Virus genome (UHGV): UHGV-0147584
Direction: 5' to 3' (one strand)
Length of the DNA: 24,897 nucleotides
From: a virus
The first letter of the stretch is position 1. Every line of letters starts with the position of its first letter. Made by a program: the position numbers and the translations under genes. Of the stretch, positions 7,943-17,242 are shown in pieces. The notes beneath the pieces were generated by a model, which saw nothing but the letters and a program-made list of their open reading frames with translations, had not been told where the DNA came from and did no database searches.

Positions 7943-8317
7943 TTACCCCAATTGTCCGCTCTTGAGCTTTTGTAATAATGAAGCGTCGAAAAAACTATCA
8001 ACCAAAGCAGCGTTACGTTCTTCCTCTTTCTTACGAGCAATTTCTTTTATTTCTTCTTGCGTTTTAAATTGCTTGTCGTCCTTAATCATTCGGAATTGGT
8101 TAACATTGATTTTATTCAACCATTCACGAGTCATGTTAGGAGATGTAACGTGCATGTAATACATCGACTGTGCATGTCGCGCATCTTGAAACAGGGGGCT
8201 TTGTGGTTCAAGATATGTATCGAATATATGCAACGCCCAAAATAGCGTAATTGGCATATTATCCATCTCATCTTTACTCAAGCCCCGACGCATCATTTGC
8301 CGAAAATAAAAATTCAA
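7943..8317 (-). CDS. T-like portion of the tail assembly chaperone GT fusion (reached by -1 frameshift from G)
   Basis: This frame has no ATG start (ORF track begins at TTG) and is open upstream to 8341, overlapping the 3-prime end of the G-like ORF in the -1 frame; immediately precedes the tape measure gene. Confidence 0.6.
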   Translation of the reverse strand: MNFYFRQMMRRGLSKDEMDNMPITLFWALHIFDTYLEPQSPLFQDARHAQSMYYMHVTSPNMTREWLNKINVNQFRMIKDDKQFKTQEEIKEIARKKEEERNAALVDSFFDASLLQKLKSGQLG

Positions 8318-8325
8318 GAGCGGGT

Positions 8326-8634
8326 TTACTTTACCTCGTTTTCAATTACCGCCGCATCTTTCATCAATGATGCTTGAGCAACTAAGCCGATTAATTCGCT
8401 GCGGACGCTAGTATACAATGCCTTAACTTGTTCAATAGATTCAAATACTGGCTTACCGTCTTCATCTTCAATACAACGAAGAATAGAGCGTTCATCACGG
8501 TCTTTTTTATCGGTATTGAAAACATGTTCATTAAATTCTTGTACCGACATAGGGCGAGCATAGAACGTAAATCCGCCGAGGGTTAAAGATTCACGTTTCG
8601 GAGAAAGAGCTTTTAACATTTCATTCAGATTCAT
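8326..8634 (-). CDS. tail assembly chaperone (lambda gpG-like)
   Basis: 102-aa acidic protein directly upstream of the T-like frame and tape measure; classic G-T-TMP arrangement. Stop TAA. Confidence 0.65.
   Translation of the reverse strand: MNLNEMLKALSPKRESLTLGGFTFYARPMSVQEFNEHVFNTDKKDRDERSILRCIEDEDGKPVFESIEQVKALYTSVRSELIGLVAQASLMKDAAVIENEVK
8329..8335 (-). other. candidate -1 slippery heptamer GGUAAAG for G to GT frameshifting
   Basis: mRNA reads G GUA AAG UAA at the last two codons of G. The -1 frame (GGU AAA GUA...) is the open T frame. Lambda uses G GGA AAG at the equivalent place (recalled). Confidence 0.45.
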
Positions 8635-8676: not shown

Positions 8677-9183
8677 TTAAGAGATTTTCAAAGTCTGCTT
8701 AGTGCCAGTCTTCTTAATGTTATTGAGGAAAGCTGCCGGAGGATTGCTTAACCAATAGTAATGAAAACCACTTTGCATACTGTTATAAGGAACAGTGACA
8801 GCAGCACCACCCAAATTAACGGTTATATTCCCCGCTCTACCGTTCTGGAGATATACAGCCATAGTAGGAGTACCACCATTGAATTGACCAACGATAACGC
8901 CAATCAGACGGCCTACGCCCACGTTTTCGGGGTTCTCCATAGTTCCTTTACTGCGCATATCAGTTACAGGATAGTTTGAAGCAGTTACACCCCAATTATT
9001 ACCCAATGACGTAGACCACGCAGCAGTAGCTACAACCGTATCCATACCACGACCAGCCATTGCCGACATATTACGCGGAGCCGGAACTTTTAAAGCTGTT
9101 AATGCTTCTTTCATCCATCGCTTACCCGTCACTGATACAGCCGATGACCCGATCCAGCCGGGAACTTTAACGACATTTGCCAT
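8677..9183 (-). CDS. hypothetical virion-associated protein (Gly/Ala/Thr-rich)
   Basis: 168-aa ORF, ATG 9181-9183 preceded by GGAG; sits between a terminator and the G chaperone gene. No family recognised. Confidence 0.45.
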   Translation of the reverse strand: MANVVKVPGWIGSSAVSVTGKRWMKEALTALKVPAPRNMSAMAGRGMDTVVATAAWSTSLGNNWGVTASNYPVTDMRSKGTMENPENVGVGRLIGVIVGQFNGGTPTMAVYLQNGRAGNITVNLGGAAVTVPYNSMQSGFHYYWLSNPPAAFLNNIKKTGTKQTLKIS

Positions 9184-9198
9184 TTTGATTACTCCAAT

Positions 9199-9226
9199 AA
9201 AAAAGCCCCACCATTAAGGCAGGGCT
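9199..9226 (-). terminator. intrinsic terminator after the 158-aa gene and its extension
   Basis: Minus-strand RNA: GC-rich hairpin GCCCUGCC..GGUGGGGC followed by UUUUUU. Nearly identical to the terminator at 15123-15150. Confidence 0.7.
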
Positions 9227-9231
9227 TATAA

Positions 9232-9357
9232 TTAATCTTTAGCCTTGCGGCTTCGTTTAGCTGTGGCTTTCGCCGTAACTTCTTCTACTTCTGGAATCAC
9301 TACCGCTTCATGTTCCGGCTGTGGTTCAGGTTCCGGTAAAGGAAGTTCTTCGTTAGT
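9232..9357 (-). other. in-frame 41-codon extension behind the UGA stop of the 158-aa gene (candidate readthrough segment)
   Basis: Hand translation from 9357 down, in frame with the upstream ORF: TNEELPLPEPEPQPEHEAVVIPEVEEVTAKATAKRSRKAKD, then TAA at 9232-9234. Confidence 0.5.
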
Positions 9358-9834
9358 TCATCCGGCAGTGTTGAAGATTTCCTGTTTCAGCGGAGCACCA
9401 TCAACAGCAAAGGTAAATTCTTTAGTTACCACTTCTTCATCGCCACCGTTCATAGCAACTTTAGAAATAAAGCCGTTGAAAGCGGTGCGAATACCAGTCT
9501 GTTTTGCTGCGTCAACATAGTATTCAATTTTAATCTGAATACGGGTTCCATCTTCGGCAGCCTTAATAAGACGCTCATGCACGGTATCCCCGGGAATATA
9601 ATTAACGGTCAGAGTCAGATCAGGAACGTTCAGTTTACCTACCAGCTTGCGGTTATACTGAGAAGAGAAGGATTTAACTTCTACAGTACCGCGCTCGATA
9701 CCAGTTTCAGGGAAACCAGCACACTCTTTAATTTCTTCATAGCTTTCATGATCGAGAGCGGTGTTAGTGGTATCGGCGTGATAGAACATACTTACCAGAC
9801 CACCAGTAAAAATATCTTTGAATTGTTGAGACAT
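9358..9834 (-). CDS. putative tail tube-fold protein (candidate major tail protein)
   Basis: 158-aa ORF with SD AAGGGG. A segment (GKLNVPDLTLTVNYIPGD...LIKAAEDGT...IEY) is paralogous to the 277-aa protein at 13552-14385. Ends in TGA followed by an in-frame extension and terminator. Confidence 0.5.
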   Translation of the reverse strand: MSQQFKDIFTGGLVSMFYHADTTNTALDHESYEEIKECAGFPETGIERGTVEVKSFSSQYNRKLVGKLNVPDLTLTVNYIPGDTVHERLIKAAEDGTRIQIKIEYYVDAAKQTGIRTAFNGFISKVAMNGGDEEVVTKEFTFAVDGAPLKQEIFNTAG

Positions 9835-9890: not shown

Positions 9891-12800
9891 TTATTTAGTT
9901 GCTTTCAGTTCGGCAATCTCTTTATGTAATGCTTCGATCTGCGCTTTATATTTGGCGTCCATTTCCTGCATAGCTTTGATGATTAAAGCATTGACAGCAG
10001 AGTTAGAAATAGTCTTGATTGCTTCTGGATGTTCTGGATCTTCGGTAGATTGAATACCTACTGCTTCCGGCAATACTTTTTCCAGATCCTGAGCAATAAT
10101 ACCTACTTCGCGTTTAATTACCGTGTCATCAGAAAGAGATTTAACTTTATCGTAGGTGTATACTTTCAGGGAGTTTACTTTCTCTAATGCACCGTCCTGT
10201 AATTCTTCCTTGTTAATTTTCAGACGAGAGTCAGAGCGAATGTAAACATCGTTAAAGCTACCGTTACGACCTGCCGTCATGTCACCGGATGCGTTAAAGT
10301 CAAAGACGGCATCATGAACATGGAGACGAACAAGAGCGTTACCGATAGTACCGCTAGGAACGTGTACACCCATTGCGGCGATATGATATTTACCTTGATG
10401 GGTTGCTTTCCAGATGTTATGAGCGGAATCGGTTGATTGCTGGCAGTCGACCTGAATACCGGAAGCACGATCACGCCAGCTAGCCCAACTACCACCAGCA
10501 ACGCTACCACGAATAAGACCATTACCGCCACCGGATACAGTGCCCGTTTCAAGGTGAATCATCTTACCGCCGAATTTCCAGACTTCGGCTTGTTTCTCAC
10601 CGCGCATACGCATAACACCAGCATCATCGCAGTACAACAGACCCAACTCTAAGCCGTTTGGATCTCTAAACCATAAATGCTTGTTACCAGTGCGCTTAAA
10701 CTCAATATCAGCACCATTCAGGGTGATATTGCCTCCAGTGTGGATTGCTTTAGGCTTAACAGTACCGTTAATAGCAAACTCGATTAATTCAGTACCAGGA
10801 CCGCCAGCACGTTGGGTATACCAGTGCCAACCGCTTTCATCAGCACATTCAAACACTTGTTTACGAGCATCAGCGCCCCATGCACGAATATTAAACGTAG
10901 AAGTTGCAGTACCTTTACCCCAGCGAATTTGTCCAGCAGCTTCTAAATCACCGAAGAATTTAGTTTTAATCGCACCAGTTGCTAAAGTACGTTCAGTGGT
11001 GAAGTGTGCACCTTTGCTATCGTCAAGCTGTAAGATATTATCACGAGCGTTATTGCTATCGCCCCAATGGTTAAACCGGAAGTAGTCGCGAGAATTTAAT
11101 CGACCAGCATCAAAGGTTAACATTCCTTTACCGACGTAAATATCACCAGCAAATCGAGCAGCACGGCTATCTCGTTCGAGAACTAATGCACCCTCGTTAC
11201 CATCACCACCTAAAGTAACTTTACCAGTCGTCAAATCGTAAATGAATGGTCGGTTGCCGTTCCAGCCACCAAATTTATCATTTTCGGCAGTTGAAAGAAG
11301 ATAAACTTTACCACCATCATTACGCCAGAATGCACCGTAGTTACCGTAAATCATACGGAATGCATCACTGTTAGCAGCTACATATTGTCCGTTTGAGTAA
11401 ACAATTTTTGTTTTACCAGTGGATAATGAAACTTGACCGTTCTCATCCAGTCTTACAGAGTTATTACCTTCCGTTAATTCATTTACTAACTGTACAGTGT
11501 TAGTAGTACCATCACCATAACCTAGATAACCCTGACGACGATTAGCACCAGAACGATAATCAAAGAATTCGATATAGTTACTTTGCCCGTCGCGGCGTTC
11601 CATTCTAATAGCGTTATTACCCTTAACAAAAAGGCGGTTTACAGTAACACCATTAAAATCAATTTTTAATTGATCCGCTGTATCAGTAACACCAGTAGCT
11701 AAACGATAGACACTACCTTCAACAACTTCATGCCAAATTGTTTCGGCTGATTTGCTACGGAATTTACGAAGATATTTTTTATTTGTATCAGTTGAGTTAT
11801 TCAGACTGATAATATCATATGTTCCTTGACCGTTATTATCGAACATCAACGTTCCGGCTTTGTTTTCGGTGTTGAACATCGTAATAACACGAGCATCAGT
11901 AACACCAACAGAAGGTTTAACGAGAGTTAATTCAGGAACATCATGTACTGTTAACGAAACATCACTAGTTTTACCATATTCGACAATAACGTTATCGGTA
12001 TAACGACCGTAGTTTACGTAAATGTCGTAGTTATCACCGGAAGTATTAACCGCAAATACTTGATGGACATTCAAAGAATTTCGACGATAAGCAGCAATAC
12101 TAACGCCTTTCGGGTTATTGTTACCGGAACGGATAACAATTTCTACAAAATCAACCTGATCATAGGAGTTAACGTTATAGCCGTTACCACCGAAGATACG
12201 AAGCATTACCATTCGACCATTCTGTGGGATCGTGGCGGTTGCAATCTTGAAGTATCCACGAGAAGCATCACCAGACGGAACAGACATTTTCACGTTCTTG
12301 ATGAACATCTGGTCAACTGCGGCCTTGCTATACACACCCAATTCATCAGGAGTCGGCTTATCACCTTCATGGTACATGCGATAGCTGAATCTCTTGTTAC
12401 CGTCCTTATCAAAGCCATAGGTTTTAACCTGAGATGAGCTAGACCCATAATGGAACTCAAAGCCGCGACCGTGTGCTTTACCGCCAGAATGAGGAATGTT
12501 AAGGATTAAGTTACCCCAGCCTTCGGCATTGTTCGGACGAAACGCACCAAAATAATCAAGGTTACGAGCACCAGCATCATCAAAATAGTTAGCGGTCTTG
12601 CTTAACAGATAGCCATGATGATAAGTGTTGGTATTCTTCTTGATGTAAAGAGCATCGTTGCTACCTTCAATACCATCAATTCGACGGTTAGCGGCTGCAA
12701 TCGCTGCATCTGCATCGGTCTTGTTTTTGTCTACCTTCGCGTTAATGGCGGTATGATTGCTATTAACAGTGTTGGTTAAGTTGGTGATCTTCGTATCAGC

Positions 12801-13478
12801 GTCTTTCTTGTTATTCGCTACCGTAGTTTCAATGGCTGATTTGTTAGCCGCAACGGTACTCGTTAAGCTGGAGATCTTAGAATCAGCATCAGACTTGTTA
12901 GCTGTAACGGTTTTGGTCATATTGCTAACATTGGTGTTGGTGGCATCAACACGGCTATTGATCGCGGTGTTATTGTCATTAACCGTAGTGGTTAAAGCTG
13001 AGATTTTATTGTCCGCGTCTCGTTTGTTATTCGCTACGGTAGTTTCAATAGCTGATTTGTTTGCCGCAACAGTGTTAGTTAAAGTGGTATGTTTGCTGTC
13101 AGCGTCGGTTTTATTTGCCGTAACTGTCTGGGTTAAGTTACTAACATTGGTGTTAGTAGCATCAATGCGCTTATTGGTTGCTGTATCTTTCGTGTTAATA
13201 GTGTTATTCAGTTCAGATTTAGCGGTAGCCAGAGCGTTAGCAGCTTCGGTTTTATTTGCCGCAATAACACGATCCGTGTTGGTTTTGTTTGTGTCTACTT
13301 TAGTGTTAAGTTCAGCGTGTTTTTCTGGGGAAACGCTGATTTGAACTACTGCGTTATTTTTGTCTTTCGTGTAAATTACGTGGTCGGCAAGGTTAATAGC
13401 TACCTCACCCTGTGCCAGTTGTTCCGGCGTTGGCTTTTTACCAGCCGTCTGTGTGCGTTTAAATTGGATTGATTGCAT
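9891..13478 (-). CDS. side / L-shaped tail fibre with C-terminal intramolecular chaperone (peptidase S74-like) domain
   Basis: 1195-aa ORF. Conserved fibre N-terminus (MQSIQFKRTQTAGKKPTPEQLAQGEVAINLADHVIYTKD), tandem shaft repeats, and a C-terminal ~114 aa beginning RSDSRLK that resembles the autocleaving chaperone of phage T5 pb1 / K1F endosialidase. Stop TAA. Confidence 0.8.
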   Translation of the reverse strand: MQSIQFKRTQTAGKKPTPEQLAQGEVAINLADHVIYTKDKNNAVVQISVSPEKHAELNTKVDTNKTNTDRVIAANKTEAANALATAKSELNNTINTKDTATNKRIDATNTNVSNLTQTVTANKTDADSKHTTLTNTVAANKSAIETTVANNKRDADNKISALTTTVNDNNTAINSRVDATNTNVSNMTKTVTANKSDADSKISSLTSTVAANKSAIETTVANNKKDADTKITNLTNTVNSNHTAINAKVDKNKTDADAAIAAANRRIDGIEGSNDALYIKKNTNTYHHGYLLSKTANYFDDAGARNLDYFGAFRPNNAEGWGNLILNIPHSGGKAHGRGFEFHYGSSSSQVKTYGFDKDGNKRFSYRMYHEGDKPTPDELGVYSKAAVDQMFIKNVKMSVPSGDASRGYFKIATATIPQNGRMVMLRIFGGNGYNVNSYDQVDFVEIVIRSGNNNPKGVSIAAYRRNSLNVHQVFAVNTSGDNYDIYVNYGRYTDNVIVEYGKTSDVSLTVHDVPELTLVKPSVGVTDARVITMFNTENKAGTLMFDNNGQGTYDIISLNNSTDTNKKYLRKFRSKSAETIWHEVVEGSVYRLATGVTDTADQLKIDFNGVTVNRLFVKGNNAIRMERRDGQSNYIEFFDYRSGANRRQGYLGYGDGTTNTVQLVNELTEGNNSVRLDENGQVSLSTGKTKIVYSNGQYVAANSDAFRMIYGNYGAFWRNDGGKVYLLSTAENDKFGGWNGNRPFIYDLTTGKVTLGGDGNEGALVLERDSRAARFAGDIYVGKGMLTFDAGRLNSRDYFRFNHWGDSNNARDNILQLDDSKGAHFTTERTLATGAIKTKFFGDLEAAGQIRWGKGTATSTFNIRAWGADARKQVFECADESGWHWYTQRAGGPGTELIEFAINGTVKPKAIHTGGNITLNGADIEFKRTGNKHLWFRDPNGLELGLLYCDDAGVMRMRGEKQAEVWKFGGKMIHLETGTVSGGGNGLIRGSVAGGSWASWRDRASGIQVDCQQSTDSAHNIWKATHQGKYHIAAMGVHVPSGTIGNALVRLHVHDAVFDFNASGDMTAGRNGSFNDVYIRSDSRLKINKEELQDGALEKVNSLKVYTYDKVKSLSDDTVIKREVGIIAQDLEKVLPEAVGIQSTEDPEHPEAIKTISNSAVNALIIKAMQEMDAKYKAQIEALHKEIAELKATK
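12735..13170 (-). repeat. two tandem ~216-bp (72-aa) repeats in the fibre shaft
   Basis: Protein repeat RIDATNTNVSNLTQTVTANKTDADSKHTTLTNTVAANKSAIETTVANNKRDADNKISALTTTV versus RVDATNTNVSNMTKTVTANKSDADSKISSLTSTVAANKSAIETTVANNKKDADTKITNLTNTV; DNA copies are near-identical over long stretches. Confidence 0.8.
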
Positions 13479-13551: not shown

Positions 13552-14385
13552 TCAGTATTCCCCGAAGTCGATTCGGTCTGTCTTAGCAACCGCATTAATT
13601 TCGGCTGGCGTAGGCTTCTCATTTGTTGTATAGACTTTAATCCATTCAGATTTTCCGTTGTCCTGAATATTTCGTACCCGCAAACGTGGAGCACCGGAAG
13701 TATTACAAGTTAATTGCCATGCGCCATGCTCATTAGCTTGAAGATGAATTAACGATGTATCAGCACCATAAGGATTAGTGCTAGCCGTTCCTTTGTAGGT
13801 TACGAAGCGGTTTCCTGTCAGAGATTCACTATCAATAGGACCACTGAAAGGATTTACACCAGCGCCCAGACCAAAATCACCCTGACGTAAGATACGGCCT
13901 TCGGTAGCAATACCCCTTGCAAGAATCCCGCCATCTGGTTCTAGTTTGAATTCCATAGTTACAGCTTTGTTATCACCACCACGAGTTTTATGGCTAGTGA
14001 CATAAGCATCATAGATGACATAGTAACCAGTGTTAGCAGCACTATAGCCAGAGTTAACGACATAGAACATTCTAAAGCGTAAAGGTGTTTTATCCTCTAC
14101 GGCTTTCATCAACATTGCTTGGTGTTCATCGTCAAGAACACGGTTTACTGTGAGCGTAGTCGGTTCAAGTTTGCGATAGCCAGCCAGCTTACCAGTCGCA
14201 TCATGATCATACTCTTCGTAAGTCTCGATCTCGGTTGATTCTGTTAGCGTAGGAAAGGCTGCGATGTTCTCCATACCACTAAAGCTAGGATCGAAAAAGT
14301 CGACCTGATTGTCTAGCTGGTTAGAGATCGACACTTCAACATGCGATCCCGTAAAAATATCTAAGTTATCATGCGTAATATTCAT
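13552..14385 (-). CDS. tube-fold tail protein (candidate major tail protein, lambda gpV position)
   Basis: 277-aa ORF with SD AAGGGGTAAT. About 34% identity over an ungapped 41-residue stretch with the 158-aa protein (TLTVN..D....L.KA.ED.T......Y). Ends TGA, then 3 sense codons and TAA. Confidence 0.5.
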   Translation of the reverse strand: MNITHDNLDIFTGSHVEVSISNQLDNQVDFFDPSFSGMENIAAFPTLTESTEIETYEEYDHDATGKLAGYRKLEPTTLTVNRVLDDEHQAMLMKAVEDKTPLRFRMFYVVNSGYSAANTGYYVIYDAYVTSHKTRGGDNKAVTMEFKLEPDGGILARGIATEGRILRQGDFGLGAGVNPFSGPIDSESLTGNRFVTYKGTASTNPYGADTSLIHLQANEHGAWQLTCNTSGAPRLRVRNIQDNGKSEWIKVYTTNEKPTPAEINAVAKTDRIDFGEY

Positions 14386-14394
14386 TATTACCCC

Positions 14395-14796
14395 TTAAAA
14401 ACGCGCTAGATAAGAAAATTTAAGGCTAAGTGTCCCAACGATACCCCCATCACTAGAATCATCGTCATAATCGGTATTAGAAGCGACTGGAGTTATATCT
14501 GAAATGGAGAAGCCCAAATCTTTAAAACGTGGGTTATCTGGCTGAATCTGGATTATCTGGCAAATACCCTCATGAATTTTGGTTTCATGAATCTGAGAAT
14601 ATAATTGCATTTCGATAACGCATTCAGCTTGCATTGCATTACCACCACGGACCCTAGTGTAAGTCTCATTCATTCCGGTAATCCAACACACCACGTCATC
14701 GCTAAAACCAGTTTGAGTTTGTTCTACGTTTAAAGCCAGACCTAGATCTTGTTCGATAATATCCTGTAAAGCACGTTTAATCTTAAGACGTGGCAT
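14395..14796 (-). CDS. neck / tail-completion protein (hypothetical)
   Basis: ORF frame extends to 14823, but the ATG at 14794-14796 lies 4 nt after the upstream stop (coupled start). Position corresponds to lambda Z/U. Confidence 0.45.
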   Translation of the reverse strand: MPRLKIKRALQDIIEQDLGLALNVEQTQTGFSDDVVCWITGMNETYTRVRGGNAMQAECVIEMQLYSQIHETKIHEGICQIIQIQPDNPRFKDLGFSISDITPVASNTDYDDDSSDGGIVGTLSLKFSYLARF

Positions 14797-15091: not shown

Positions 15092-15122
15092 AGTTACCCC
15101 CTTTTATGGAGTATTTACATAC

Positions 15123-15150
15123 AAAAAAGCCCCACCGTTAGGCAGGGCTA
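15123..15150 (-). terminator. intrinsic terminator after the capsid gene and its extension
   Basis: Minus-strand RNA: AGCCCUGCCUAACGGUGGGGC hairpin followed by UUUUUUGUAUGU. Confidence 0.7.
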
Positions 15151-15154
15151 ATTA

Positions 15155-15241
15155 TTATTTTGCTTTCGGTGGACGTCCCACCTTTTTAGCTGTGGCTTTC
15201 GCCGTAACTACCGGAATTTCTTCCGGCAATTCTTCGTTATT
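15155..15241 (-). other. in-frame 28-codon extension behind the UGA stop of the capsid gene (candidate readthrough segment)
   Basis: Hand translation from 15241 down, same frame as the capsid ORF: NNEELPEEIPVVTAKATAKKVGRPPKAK, then TAA at 15155-15157. Confidence 0.5.
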
Positions 15242-17242
15242 TCATTCAGCGGAGATGTGAAGAACTTTCAGAGCTTCCGGCTGTGCTACAACGTAGTCCA
15301 AATCTACAAAGATACGAGGCACTACCGCACCACGATCCCTATATGTAGTTAGATCCATGTCGAGTTCCAGACCTCCCCACTCACCGATAGTAATACCGGA
15401 GAAGTCACCCAGAACGATGTGGTCTGCCGGGATAACGCCAGAAGTAACTACTTCGTAACCAGCCAGTTTGCCGTTTTCGATGATATAACCGGAAACGCCG
15501 TTATCTTTCAGGGTAGATTCCAGTTCAGCAGCAGTTGCACCGCTCATCGCAAACTTGATCGCCTGAGCAGGAACGCCAGCGTCGGTCAGTGCTGCAATTT
15601 CTTTCAGGAAGTCTTTGTAAGAGAAAGCAGCTTTCTTGGTAACGCGGCTAGCGTCTACCAGTTGCTTAACCAGACCAGCCGGACCACGGTCGTTAGCTTT
15701 ATCAGACAGAATCAGTTGTTCCAGTTTGATGCGAACAGCTTTGTTAATGTGATCAGTGATCAGGGAAGCGATGCCGGGTACGGTTTTCAGCGACTGACGG
15801 CTGATCGGGTTGCCACCAGCAAAAGTTTTCGGAGACAGTTTCACGTTCGCAAATTCAGCTTTGCTTTCCGGTGCAGCACCGTTTTCATCAACGAAGCCGA
15901 AAGCGTCAACGCTGGATTTAGTCATTTTTGGAATAGCGGTCGGGGAGTTCAAGCCACTGTAAACAGTCACACCCAGACGACCCAGAACAGATTCCGGCAT
16001 CAGCATTTCGATGTAGGATTCAGTCATCAGTTTTTCGTCAGTGATAGCGGTCAGGTCGGCTTTGGTGTTACCAGCAGAAGCAGCACGCATAGCAGCAGCC
16101 GGAACGAATACAGAGCCACCGCGAGCAGCACGACCACGCTGCATTGCAGCACCAGCAGCCATAGCGGAATATTCAGCTTCGTTAGCACCCAGAGCAGCAC
16201 CATCTACCAGAGAGCGAATTACGTTGTTCAGGTCAAAAGTTTTTTCCATTTTAGAGTCCTTAATTTGTTCGTTATTACGTTGAGCATTGACGAGATTATT
16301 TAGTGCCTTAGTGCGGAATGCTTCCGGCGTCATGTCTTTAATTGCCAATGCGCGTTTCAATTCTTCGTCGTCAATATTTAGTTCCCGCGCGATTGCTCGG
16401 ATTTCTTCTTCGTCTTCTTCGGAACGTTCAGCCACTTCTTCGGTTTTTTCTTCTTCAACCGGAGCGGCTTCACGTTCTTCTTTTACTTCTTCTTCCCGAA
16501 CAGTTGAACTATCATCATCAACACTTTCAGGATGTTTAGCGTCTTTTCCGTCTTCGAGATTTTCATCTTCTTTATTCTCTTCAACTTGGCGCTCTTGAGT
16601 TTCTTCAACTTTCGGTTCTTTATTTTCTTCTACCGGAGTTTCTTCAACCTGAGCGGGTTCTTGTTCTTCTTTGATTTCTTCGATTTGTTCTTTAGTCATA
16701 TCGCGTTTAGCCCCCAAATTAACTGTGATAGTATTTAGAGAGCGATTTAAACCGACCGAATCATCGGCAGGGACCGTGACCCACGAAATTTCGTGAGGAA
16801 TCCATTTAGAAACAATGAGTTGCGATTTAGCGTAGTCGATGTGATATTCTTTAATGTCATAACCGACAGAAATTTTTTCCATCGTACCTTCAATGACTTT
16901 ATTACGAATATCATTAGCCAAAGTCCCATGCTTAGAGAATTTAACCAGAGCACGGCCTACGTTATCCGCATCGATTCGAGCGTTACAAACGACACCAATG
17001 TGATTATCGAAATTATGATTGAACAGCAACGGAGCGTTATTATTCAGACGAGACAGATCAACCGCTTCCGGTGTATGTACCAGAATTTCATCTAATACCA
17101 CCATTTCTTGATTTTGCTCATCCCAAAATTGGCGCTGATAAGGCTGTGTACTTGAGAAAGCAATTTCAAACTCGTATTGATCGTTATGCCCTTCGTTAAT
17201 AACTCCACCGTAACCGTTAAGATCGCGGCGAAATTTAAGCAT
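15242..17242 (-). CDS. prohead protease - acidic scaffold - major capsid protein (HK97 fold) encoded as one ORF
   Basis: 666 aa. N-terminal ~180 aa carry HK97-family prohead protease signatures (LLFNHNFDNHIG; KISVGY...HEISWVTVPADDSVG). Residues ~180-330 are an extremely acidic low-complexity linker. The C-terminal ~330 aa look like an HK97-fold capsid protein. SD AAGGTGA. Stop TGA. Confidence 0.75.
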   Translation of the reverse strand: MLKFRRDLNGYGGVINEGHNDQYEFEIAFSSTQPYQRQFWDEQNQEMVVLDEILVHTPEAVDLSRLNNNAPLLFNHNFDNHIGVVCNARIDADNVGRALVKFSKHGTLANDIRNKVIEGTMEKISVGYDIKEYHIDYAKSQLIVSKWIPHEISWVTVPADDSVGLNRSLNTITVNLGAKRDMTKEQIEEIKEEQEPAQVEETPVEENKEPKVEETQERQVEENKEDENLEDGKDAKHPESVDDDSSTVREEEVKEEREAAPVEEEKTEEVAERSEEDEEEIRAIARELNIDDEELKRALAIKDMTPEAFRTKALNNLVNAQRNNEQIKDSKMEKTFDLNNVIRSLVDGAALGANEAEYSAMAAGAAMQRGRAARGGSVFVPAAAMRAASAGNTKADLTAITDEKLMTESYIEMLMPESVLGRLGVTVYSGLNSPTAIPKMTKSSVDAFGFVDENGAAPESKAEFANVKLSPKTFAGGNPISRQSLKTVPGIASLITDHINKAVRIKLEQLILSDKANDRGPAGLVKQLVDASRVTKKAAFSYKDFLKEIAALTDAGVPAQAIKFAMSGATAAELESTLKDNGVSGYIIENGKLAGYEVVTSGVIPADHIVLGDFSGITIGEWGGLELDMDLTTYRDRGAVVPRIFVDLDYVVAQPEALKVLHISAE

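Follow-up and report, generated by a model that had tools for sequence, protein, structure and literature searches.

The window analysed here is a stretch of 24,897 nucleotides (nt) from UHGV virus genome UHGV-0147584. Its open reading frames (ORFs) and their Pfam matches describe the late structural genes of a siphovirus-type prophage, nearly all on the minus strand. Among them are genes for a large terminase, a lambda-family portal, an S78 protease fused to a scaffold-like region and the HK97 capsid, head completion, a long tail fibre, the tail tube, chaperones, a tape measure and a tip protein. Examined here are the 3' ends of the tube and capsid genes, each of which stops at UGA and is followed, in the same reading frame, by a short open extension, a second stop and an intrinsic terminator. 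The features of these two modules are listed below, with the method by which each was identified.

9361-9834, minus strand: major tail tube gene, 158 amino acids (aa), lambda gpV-like N-domain fold (ORF and AlphaFold2 (AF2)/Foldseek)
9358-9360, minus strand: UGA stop of the tube gene, next base A (sequence and 19 of 19 distinct tube contexts)
9235-9357, minus strand: in-frame 41-codon extension TNEELPLPEPEPQPEHEAVVIPEVEEVTAKATAKRSRKAKD (sequence)
9256-9279, minus strand: tube copy of the 24-nt block GTTACGGCGAAAGCCACAGCTAAA, coding VTAKATAK (exact duplicate)
9232-9234, minus strand: UAA closing the tube extension, 4 nt ahead of the terminator stem (sequence)
9196-9227, minus strand: intrinsic terminator after the tube module, 10-base-pair (bp) stem and U-tract, hairpin at 9227-9203 (repeat and terminator analysis)
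15245-17242, minus strand: S78 prohead protease, acidic scaffold-like region and HK97-type major capsid in one 666-aa gene (Pfam)
15242-15244, minus strand: UGA stop of the capsid gene, next base A (sequence and 35 of 35 distinct contexts)
15158-15241, minus strand: in-frame 28-codon extension NNEELPEEIPVVTAKATAKKVGRPPKAK, short class (sequence)
15185-15208, minus strand: capsid copy of the 24-nt block GTTACGGCGAAAGCCACAGCTAAA (exact duplicate)
15152-15157, minus strand: tandem UAA UAA closing the capsid extension (sequence)
15122-15149, minus strand: intrinsic terminator after the capsid module, hairpin at 15149-15128 (terminator analysis)

The last sense codon before UGA is GGA in the tube gene and GAA in the capsid gene. 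The 666-aa fusion scores above the Pfam cut-offs for PF05065 (Phage_capsid, 93.9 bits) and PF04586 (Peptidase_S78, 39.1 bits). For the tube protein, a Foldseek search with the AF2 model returned as best matches the YDC107 tail core and the lambda gpV tube (E 7e-7 to 3e-6, probability 1.0), and in relatives the gene adjoins the chaperone and tape-measure genes on their upstream side. By modelled fold and gene position, the 158-aa protein is a genuine lambda-type siphovirus tail tube protein. The label "tube-fold", given to this gene in an earlier reading of the sequence alone (hereafter the original prediction), is correct because of the match to lambda gpV at E ~1e-6, although the matches to the Pfam tube families Phage_TTP_11/12 fall slightly under their cut-offs.

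The 41-codon tube extension runs from an acidic Pro/Glu-rich spacer through VTAKATAK to the basic tip RSRKAKD. At the nucleotide level the two modules have three islands in common, namely TGA-AMT-AAC-GWA-GAA at the stop, the 24-mer, and a near-identical terminator, with divergent sequence between them. The 24-mer occurs exactly twice in the window, with 0 occurrences expected in shuffled sequence. The layout proposed in the original prediction for the tube gene (158-aa ORF, UGA, 41 in-frame codons, UAA) proved exact in coordinates and sequence, as did the identity of the two 24-nt blocks, and its second copy behind the capsid gene is real, comprising UGA, 28 in-frame codons, UAA UAA and the similar terminator. 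An open stretch of 41 codons is not rare in itself; it is the comparative signal described below that exceeds chance. The NCBI annotation pipeline PGAP annotates nothing at either place, leaving gaps of 175 and 194 nt after these genes. The extensions, which range from 28 to 45 residues among relatives, matched no Pfam family, and AF2 predicted them with a local distance difference test score (pLDDT) of <50 throughout, so that the tube extension is predicted to be disordered and no immunoglobulin-like (Ig-like) or FN3 domain was found.

A comparison set of ~75 loci of the same prophage family was assembled from IMG/VR prophages, complete Escherichia coli genomes and metagenome contigs. It yielded 54 distinct module-bearing gene ends, 35 of them capsid contexts and 19 tube contexts; 21 more metagenome instances were counted separately. 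These came from a 19-mer search of metagenomes in which ~60 of 83 matches were chance or unrelated contexts and were excluded. A scan of genome contigs with a whole-capsid alignment picked up protease motifs and returned mostly relatives at 21-45% identity, which are uninformative on the module. Among complete E. coli genomes, 54 of 5426 (~1%) carry the module, at most two copies per genome, and it is confined to this prophage family, which is an uncharacterised one in E. coli; strains 14EC029, MEI003 and 14EC007 are examples of lysogens with both modules. A megablast search of GenBank phages with both regions gave no match; the nearest phage record, DCP80, has a tube protein 43% identical to the present one and lacks the module. 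A tblastn search of phages with the extension peptides likewise gave no match, for which low-complexity filtering is probably responsible.

Stop-codon identity distinguishes genes with and without the module. TAA is the stop of 18 of the window's 21 genes, in many of them as tandem UAAUAA, and the other three end in UGA; only the tube and capsid genes, the two most abundantly made virion genes, end in TGA-A. The same TGA-A was found in 54/54 distinct module-bearing gene ends and in the 21 further metagenome instances, while in the same capsid and tube contexts all eight third-codon positions in the four codons upstream of the stop vary and the last sense codon is not fixed (GGA, GCT, TCT, GGT; GAA, GAG, GAC, GAT). 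A single G-to-A change converts UGA to UAA and would be neutral if merely a stop were required. Among tube genes without the module, 53 of 57 contexts have TAA or TAA-TAA immediately before another terminator, and the same is true of 69 of 81 module-free capsid contexts. The tube genes of two loci (L044/L045), and both genes in Salmonella/Hafnia relatives, lack the extension, end in TAA or TAA-TAA and are followed by another terminator; some E. coli prophages keep the capsid module alongside a different tube allele that lacks it. UGA is kept with the module and TAA is almost always used without it, and UGA and extension were therefore gained and kept together. At the level of sequence, then, a putatively leaky UGA in a conserved context has been retained against stronger stops. 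The original prediction had named a retained terminator with a lost or out-of-frame extension as the case that would speak for a mere duplicated 3' element; the opposite was observed, the extension lying in frame behind TGA-A in every relative that keeps the terminator cassette. Its central proposal, a UGA-readthrough module shared by two unrelated virion genes, gains support from the 54 contexts and the 21 metagenome instances.

The only other UGA stop of the window, UGA-U followed by 3 open codons, ends a 277-aa gene (13555-14385, minus strand) just upstream of the long fibre gene. Over its N-terminal 160 residues the product is paralogous to the 158-aa tube protein (29% identity, E 3e-14), and it has an additional C-terminal domain of ~118 aa. 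This protein may be a fibre-docking ring or a second tube-like protein.

The reading frame between the two stops is also preserved. Extension lengths are 28, 33, 42, 43, 44 and 45 codons for the capsid gene and 36, 39, 40 and 41 codons for the tube gene (33 and 40 being from metagenomes). In an alignment built from DNA only, with no protein guidance and with the gaps of the terminator loop as an internal control, all gaps that fall between the two stops have lengths divisible by three (6 and 15 nt in the tube module; 48, 3, 6 and 3 nt in the capsid module), whereas the terminator-loop gaps, a few bases further on, are of 1 or 2 nt. In the 27 distinct extension sequences first collected, frame 0 contains no stop in any, and frames +1 and +2 hold 1-6 stops each. 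The downstream ORF is thus open in phase with its gene and accepts indels in multiples of three only. The linkers of the four main variants cannot be aligned as DNA, yet all encode acidic Pro-rich spacers, and in all four the linker is followed by V[T/K]AKAT[A/V]K and a Lys/Arg-rich end. For the tube extension, the ratio of nonsynonymous to synonymous polymorphism (pN/pS) is 0.42 in frame 0 versus 0.82 and 1.12 in the other frames, and the last 57 nt of the gene itself show a like pattern. In more distant tube proteins, from Edwardsiella and an IMG/VR contig, the C-terminal tail is constitutive (...NVIPEAVAAKEK and ...PIVIPEAAK), and these tails are similar to the VVIPEVEEVTAKATAK portion of the tube extension. 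A 198-aa metagenome protein (P0001 of L050, ENA contig k141_243218) that appeared to be a fusion of tube and extension with Trp at the stop was rejected: it is an artefact of code-4 gene calling, because its DNA, on a short contig, reads TGA.

The modules also hold conserved RNA structure, the elements of which are as follows.

9277-9347, minus strand: stem-loop domain of the tube RNA, closing helix AACUUC (9347-9342)/GAAGUU (9282-9277) (RNAalifold)
9265-9274, minus strand: GGCGAAAGCC GNRA mini-hairpin, tube copy (covariation analysis)
15194-15203, minus strand: GGCGAAAGCC mini-hairpin, capsid copy (covariation analysis)
9241-9252, minus strand: second small hairpin AGCC-GCAA-GGCU, within the basic-tail codons (predicted, 15 of 15 tube modules)
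15206-15231, minus strand: 11-bp hairpin with GAAA loop, beginning 10 nt after the capsid UGA (structure prediction)

Each of the three module classes has a helix that begins exactly 10 nt past the UGA and closes right before the GGCGAAAGCC mini-hairpin, while the interior differs by class: an 11-bp GAAA hairpin in the short capsid class, a three-way structure in the long capsid class and a long irregular stem in the tube class. In the alignment of 15 distinct tube modules given to RNAalifold, two pairs of the closing helix carry compensatory double changes from U-A to A-U in the TFEEQ variant. The hairpin of the short capsid class shows one compensatory pair (U-A to C-G) and two one-sided changes, with pairing preserved throughout, and the GGUGGG/CCACC stem further downstream has another compensated pair; no compensatory double change was found in the long capsid class. 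The pairs of the GGCGAAAGCC mini-hairpin are invariant except for one C-G to U-G change, in which pairing is kept as G-U, and the AGCC-GCAA-GGCU hairpin has G-U/A-U variation at its closing pair. The GGC-GAAA-GCC hairpin noticed in the original prediction is therefore present, but as one part of a larger conserved RNA architecture whose helix begins 10 nt past the UGA. Both copies of this mini-hairpin (9265-9274 and 15194-15203, minus strand) contain GCGAAAGC, the sequence of the unusually stable DNA mini-hairpin d(GCGAAAGC). A search of Rfam with the module gave no match at E up to 1. Stimulation of readthrough is one possible role of the structure; another, equally possible, is to shield a ribosome-poor stretch of RNA from Rho and nucleases.

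The pattern of stop codon, frame and indels argues that programmed readthrough of UGA probably yields minor, C-terminally extended forms of the capsid and tube subunits with a disordered tail. Each gene would end in a portable 3' cassette that consists, in order, of UGA-A, a conserved 10-nt spacer, a structured RNA domain, the GNRA mini-hairpin, the basic-tail codons, UAA and the terminator. UGA in E. coli is read through by Trp-tRNA in competition with release factor 2 (RF2) (PMC10570021). Under the proposed mechanism, the majority of ribosomes would stop at the UGA via RF2, and a minority, probably a few per cent, would decode it with near-cognate Trp-tRNA and continue for 28-45 codons to the UAA abutting the terminator. 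With Trp at the stop, the predicted junctions are ...NTAG-W-TNEELPLPEPEPQPEHEAVVIPEVEEVTAK for the tube (NTAG-W-TNEELP) and ...HISAE-W-NNEELPEEIPVVTAK for the capsid. An A placed 3' of UGA is reportedly favourable to suppression by tRNA-Trp (Engelberg-Kulka, 1981).

The minor products would bear a flexible acidic Pro/Glu-rich spacer that ends in V-T-A-K-A-T-A-K and a Lys/Arg-rich tip, so that a minority of capsid and tube proteins probably carry an acidic spacer with a positively charged end. The tails are expected on the outside of the virion because the C-termini of HK97-fold capsids (as in T7 10B) and of lambda-type tubes face outward; the tube extension starts at the attachment point of the external Ig-like domain of lambda gpV. 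Tails shown in this way at low occupancy on the exterior of head and tail would most probably serve for weak electrostatic adhesion or docking, and on these models the surface-exposed basic tail envisaged in the original prediction is plausible. More tentatively, and with somewhat less than even confidence, the module may be a self-contained mobile readthrough cassette that was recombined onto capsid and tube genes and sets a fixed low dose of a cationic surface tail.

Several observations weigh against readthrough, and some of them speak for the alternative that a structured 3' untranslated region (UTR) with its terminator was duplicated for mRNA stability, processing, a small RNA or a protein site, the open frame being incidental. 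For the capsid extension pN/pS is alike in the three frames (0.73, 0.75 and 0.68), as expected of a sequence without frame-specific purifying selection; by substitution patterns, selection on the peptide thus has modest support for the tube extension and none for the capsid extension. Under neutrality ~1.6 frame-0 stops are expected in the tube set and ~2.6 in the capsid set, and the probability of finding none by chance is ~0.2 and ~0.08, respectively. In the 24-nt block, 5 of 6 observed variants are non-synonymous and most synonymous sites are fixed, a pattern better matched by a constraint on the RNA or DNA, or by gene conversion, than by peptide-level selection. Moreover, compensatory changes that preserve the helix replace residues of the peptide (L by S, V by I). 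The cassette is thus under RNA-level constraint too. A stimulatory role of the helix is uncertain because a start 10 nt past the stop is probably too distant for the mRNA entrance of a ribosome with UGA in its A site; we know of no downstream-structure stimulator established for bacterial near-cognate readthrough. In addition, natural E. coli isolates, whose typical RF2 variant has higher activity than that of K-12, may read UGA through only weakly. It should also be noted that the module counts are not independent events, because the prophages compared are closely related and the cassette may have arisen no more than twice, and that readthrough and the extended proteins are predictions from sequence comparison.

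Conservation of the stop context, the 24-mer and the terminator between the two copies as nucleotides, synonymous positions included, the several conserved hairpins and the movement of the cassette together with its own terminator are all as a duplicated UTR would have them. It nonetheless leaves unexplained why TGA-A stands in 54 of 54 module-bearing ends when module-free relatives and 18 of 21 window genes use TAA, why six or more inter-stop indels are all multiples of three when those of the terminator loop are not, why frame 0 alone is stop-free in every variant, and why linkers that cannot be aligned have the same amino-acid character; nor does any Rfam family match. Constraint lies not on RNA structure alone but also on frame, stop identity and indel length, and the UTR explanation is accordingly considered unlikely. 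Readthrough might instead be real and serve regulation, with ribosomes that reach the UAA masking the 5' arm of the terminator or blocking Rho or RNases and so tuning downstream transcription, the peptide being a by-product. The extension stop does abut the terminator stem (4 nt for the tube, 2-5 nt for the capsid), module-free relatives have the same stop-beside-terminator geometry, and such a role would agree with weak peptide constraint combined with preserved frame and flexible length. Against it, readthrough at a level of a few per cent would save no larger a share of the transcripts, for which a weaker terminator would suffice. Because it also leaves unexplained the acidic-spacer and basic-tip design of four otherwise unalignable variants and the resemblance to constitutive C-terminal tails of relatives, a purely regulatory purpose is regarded as distinctly unlikely.

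Dedicated decoding of the UGA, whether by selenocysteine insertion at a SECIS-like hairpin, a phage suppressor tRNA, ribosome hopping or frameshifting, is very improbable. A stem-loop does lie 10 nt after the UGA, close to the ~11-nt spacing of the SECIS minihelix in E. coli, but the three classes have wholly different apical structures, no common SelB-type loop was found, and Rfam again gave no match. ARAGORN found no suppressor tRNA in the window or in 22 related loci, only 91-nt antisense artefacts inside a gene. One of these, a "tRNA-Gln(ttg)" of 91 nt at window 14540-14630 (plus strand), antisense to a 142-aa gene, is almost certainly a false positive, because in relatives the call is absent or turns into tRNA-Glu(ttc) at the same place. 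No frameshift is needed, because the extension lies in frame 0 right after the stop, and no slippery site has to be assumed; frames +1 and -1 close within a few codons. Hopping is unsupported in that no conserved take-off and landing pair exists, because the last sense codon varies. An overlapping ATG mini-ORF (ATGAAnTAA) was dropped, together with hopping and frameshifting, as the flanking codons are not conserved. It is extremely improbable that the extension is a separate small gene with its own internal start: in-frame GTG or TTG codons exist in some variants, but no start codon or Shine-Dalgarno sequence is conserved across classes, and conservation begins at the UGA itself with the TGA-AMT-AAC-GWA-GAA common to both genes. 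Programmed readthrough to an extended subunit is the reading preferred here, and lysogens with which it could be tested are obtainable, since the module is present in ~1% of complete E. coli genomes.

Recoding at the 3' end of a major capsid or tail gene is a known theme, and the anatomy of the two genes alone places them within it. The closest analogues of the predicted proteins are the minor virion proteins derived by recoding in T7/T3 (10B), SPP1 (gp17.1*) and Qβ (A1), and above all those of the Listeria phages PSA, A118 and A500. In the latter, the capsid (Cps) and tail (Tsh) genes are both recoded at their 3' ends to give longer minor forms (PMC5009743), by +1 or -1 frameshifting at CCC_UGA or with pseudoknots; here, unlike there, the extension continues in frame 0 behind the stop, and the two extensions are homologous to each other and have a terminator in common. 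Qβ A1 is made by ~5% readthrough of UGA in E. coli (PMC7026636), and the predicted products resemble it in that the gene of a virion subunit has a leaky UGA leading to an in-frame, minor, C-terminally extended protein. Qβ, however, is a single-stranded RNA phage with an unrelated coat fold, and its A1 extension is a folded domain of ~200 aa required for infectivity, whereas here a tailed double-stranded DNA (dsDNA) prophage has the same cassette, encoding a disordered tail of 28-45 aa, on two genes. In SPP1, gp17.1 and gp17.1* occur at 3:1 in the tail tube and the extension is dispensable (PMC5009743, PMC8718954). A minor extended capsid or tube form on the virion, as predicted here, is thus shared with T7/T3 10A/10B and SPP1 gp17.1*, but those systems frameshift, and the T3 and SPP1 extensions are folded Ig-like/FN3 domains, unlike the short, low-complexity tails predicted to be disordered here.

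Mobile Ig-like decoration domains also sit on the C-termini of different virion proteins, are moved by recombination and are sometimes reached by recoding; unlike them, the present cassette lacks an Ig fold and brings its own recoding signal and terminator. A leaky UGA, a short spacer and conserved RNA structure are likewise combined in the readthrough elements of eukaryotic RNA viruses, namely extended 3' stem-loops and the MuLV pseudoknot (cited in PMC7026636). Those elements act on eukaryotic ribosomes, whereas the role of the helix here is putative. A literature search, outside of which most subscription journals lay, brought up no account of a capsid or tube gene in a tailed dsDNA phage that undergoes UGA readthrough, and recoding by stop-codon readthrough seems not to have been previously described for tailed DNA phages. 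If the proposed readthrough is real, the cassette would represent the first described case of programmed stop-codon readthrough in a tailed dsDNA phage, and possibly the first in bacteria of near-cognate readthrough assisted by RNA structure, and readthrough would join frameshifting among the recoding routes by which tailed phages make minor virion proteins. Standard annotation would miss such products. A compact, natural and portable cassette of this kind would provide a test case for the leakiness of UGA in bacteria, the downstream helix included, and possibly a tool for low-copy peptide display on the heads and tails of E. coli phages.

Capsid genes of distant relatives suggest other routes to a C-terminal tail. 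In cassette-free relatives from Edwardsiella, Proteus, phage DCP80 and some IMG/VR contigs (L051:1700-1900, L052:3480-3680, L001:3480-3680, L168, L169), A_AAG (or A_AAA_AAA) lies two codons ahead of the capsid stop, and in Edwardsiella and Proteus a hairpin begins exactly at the capsid stop codon, after a 6-nt spacer. The -1 frame is open across the stop and ends in the basic tails VSVKSGRKPKTDN, VSVKKAKKAKAE, APVKKSKSASG and RKAKAKAKAKAETAE. Judging from these sequences, -1 frameshifting in the style of dnaX and T7 10B may give distant relatives a comparable basic tail on the capsid, with the caveat that A-rich pre-terminator sequence codes for Lys in any frame. Among Hafnia-type capsid C-termini (L048:3990-4020 versus L164/L165) there is a sense/stop polymorphism: one form reads ...GV-GAA-AKSKA-stop, with a constitutive basic tail, and the other ...GV-TAA-AKSKD-stop, with the same tail in frame behind UAA. 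Many other relatives have constitutive Ala/Lys-rich capsid tails such as EASKAK, AEAKAAKQ and AGETRKAK. The DCP80 record (L001, PQ671644.1, an Escherichia phage) is a 141-kb entry classed as Straboviridae/Gaprivervirus in which all coding sequences are labelled hypothetical. Even so, it has a module of lambda-like portal, capsid fusion and tube that is akin to this prophage family, and the record could be a chimera or wrongly classified.

The gene order of the window is unusual in that a 1195-aa fibre gene (9894-13478, minus strand), with a T4 gp34-type trimerisation domain and an S74 intramolecular chaperone, lies between the head-completion genes and the tube gene. Within it, at 12742-13184 (plus-strand coordinates), are two pairs of direct repeats of 130 nt and 86 nt that are 216 nt apart and 73-76% identical, a spacing that indicates, from the sequence, an internal duplication of 72 codons. 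At 8680-9183 (minus strand), in the interval that separates the tube gene from the chaperone genes, lies the gene of a 168-aa protein that has a T4 gp38 N-terminal adhesin domain, and this gene and the 1195-aa fibre gene are freely exchanged among relatives. The place that the G/GT chaperone pair has in lambda is taken here, at window 7943-8634 (minus strand), by two ORFs of 102 aa and 124 aa that separate the tube region from the tape-measure gene.

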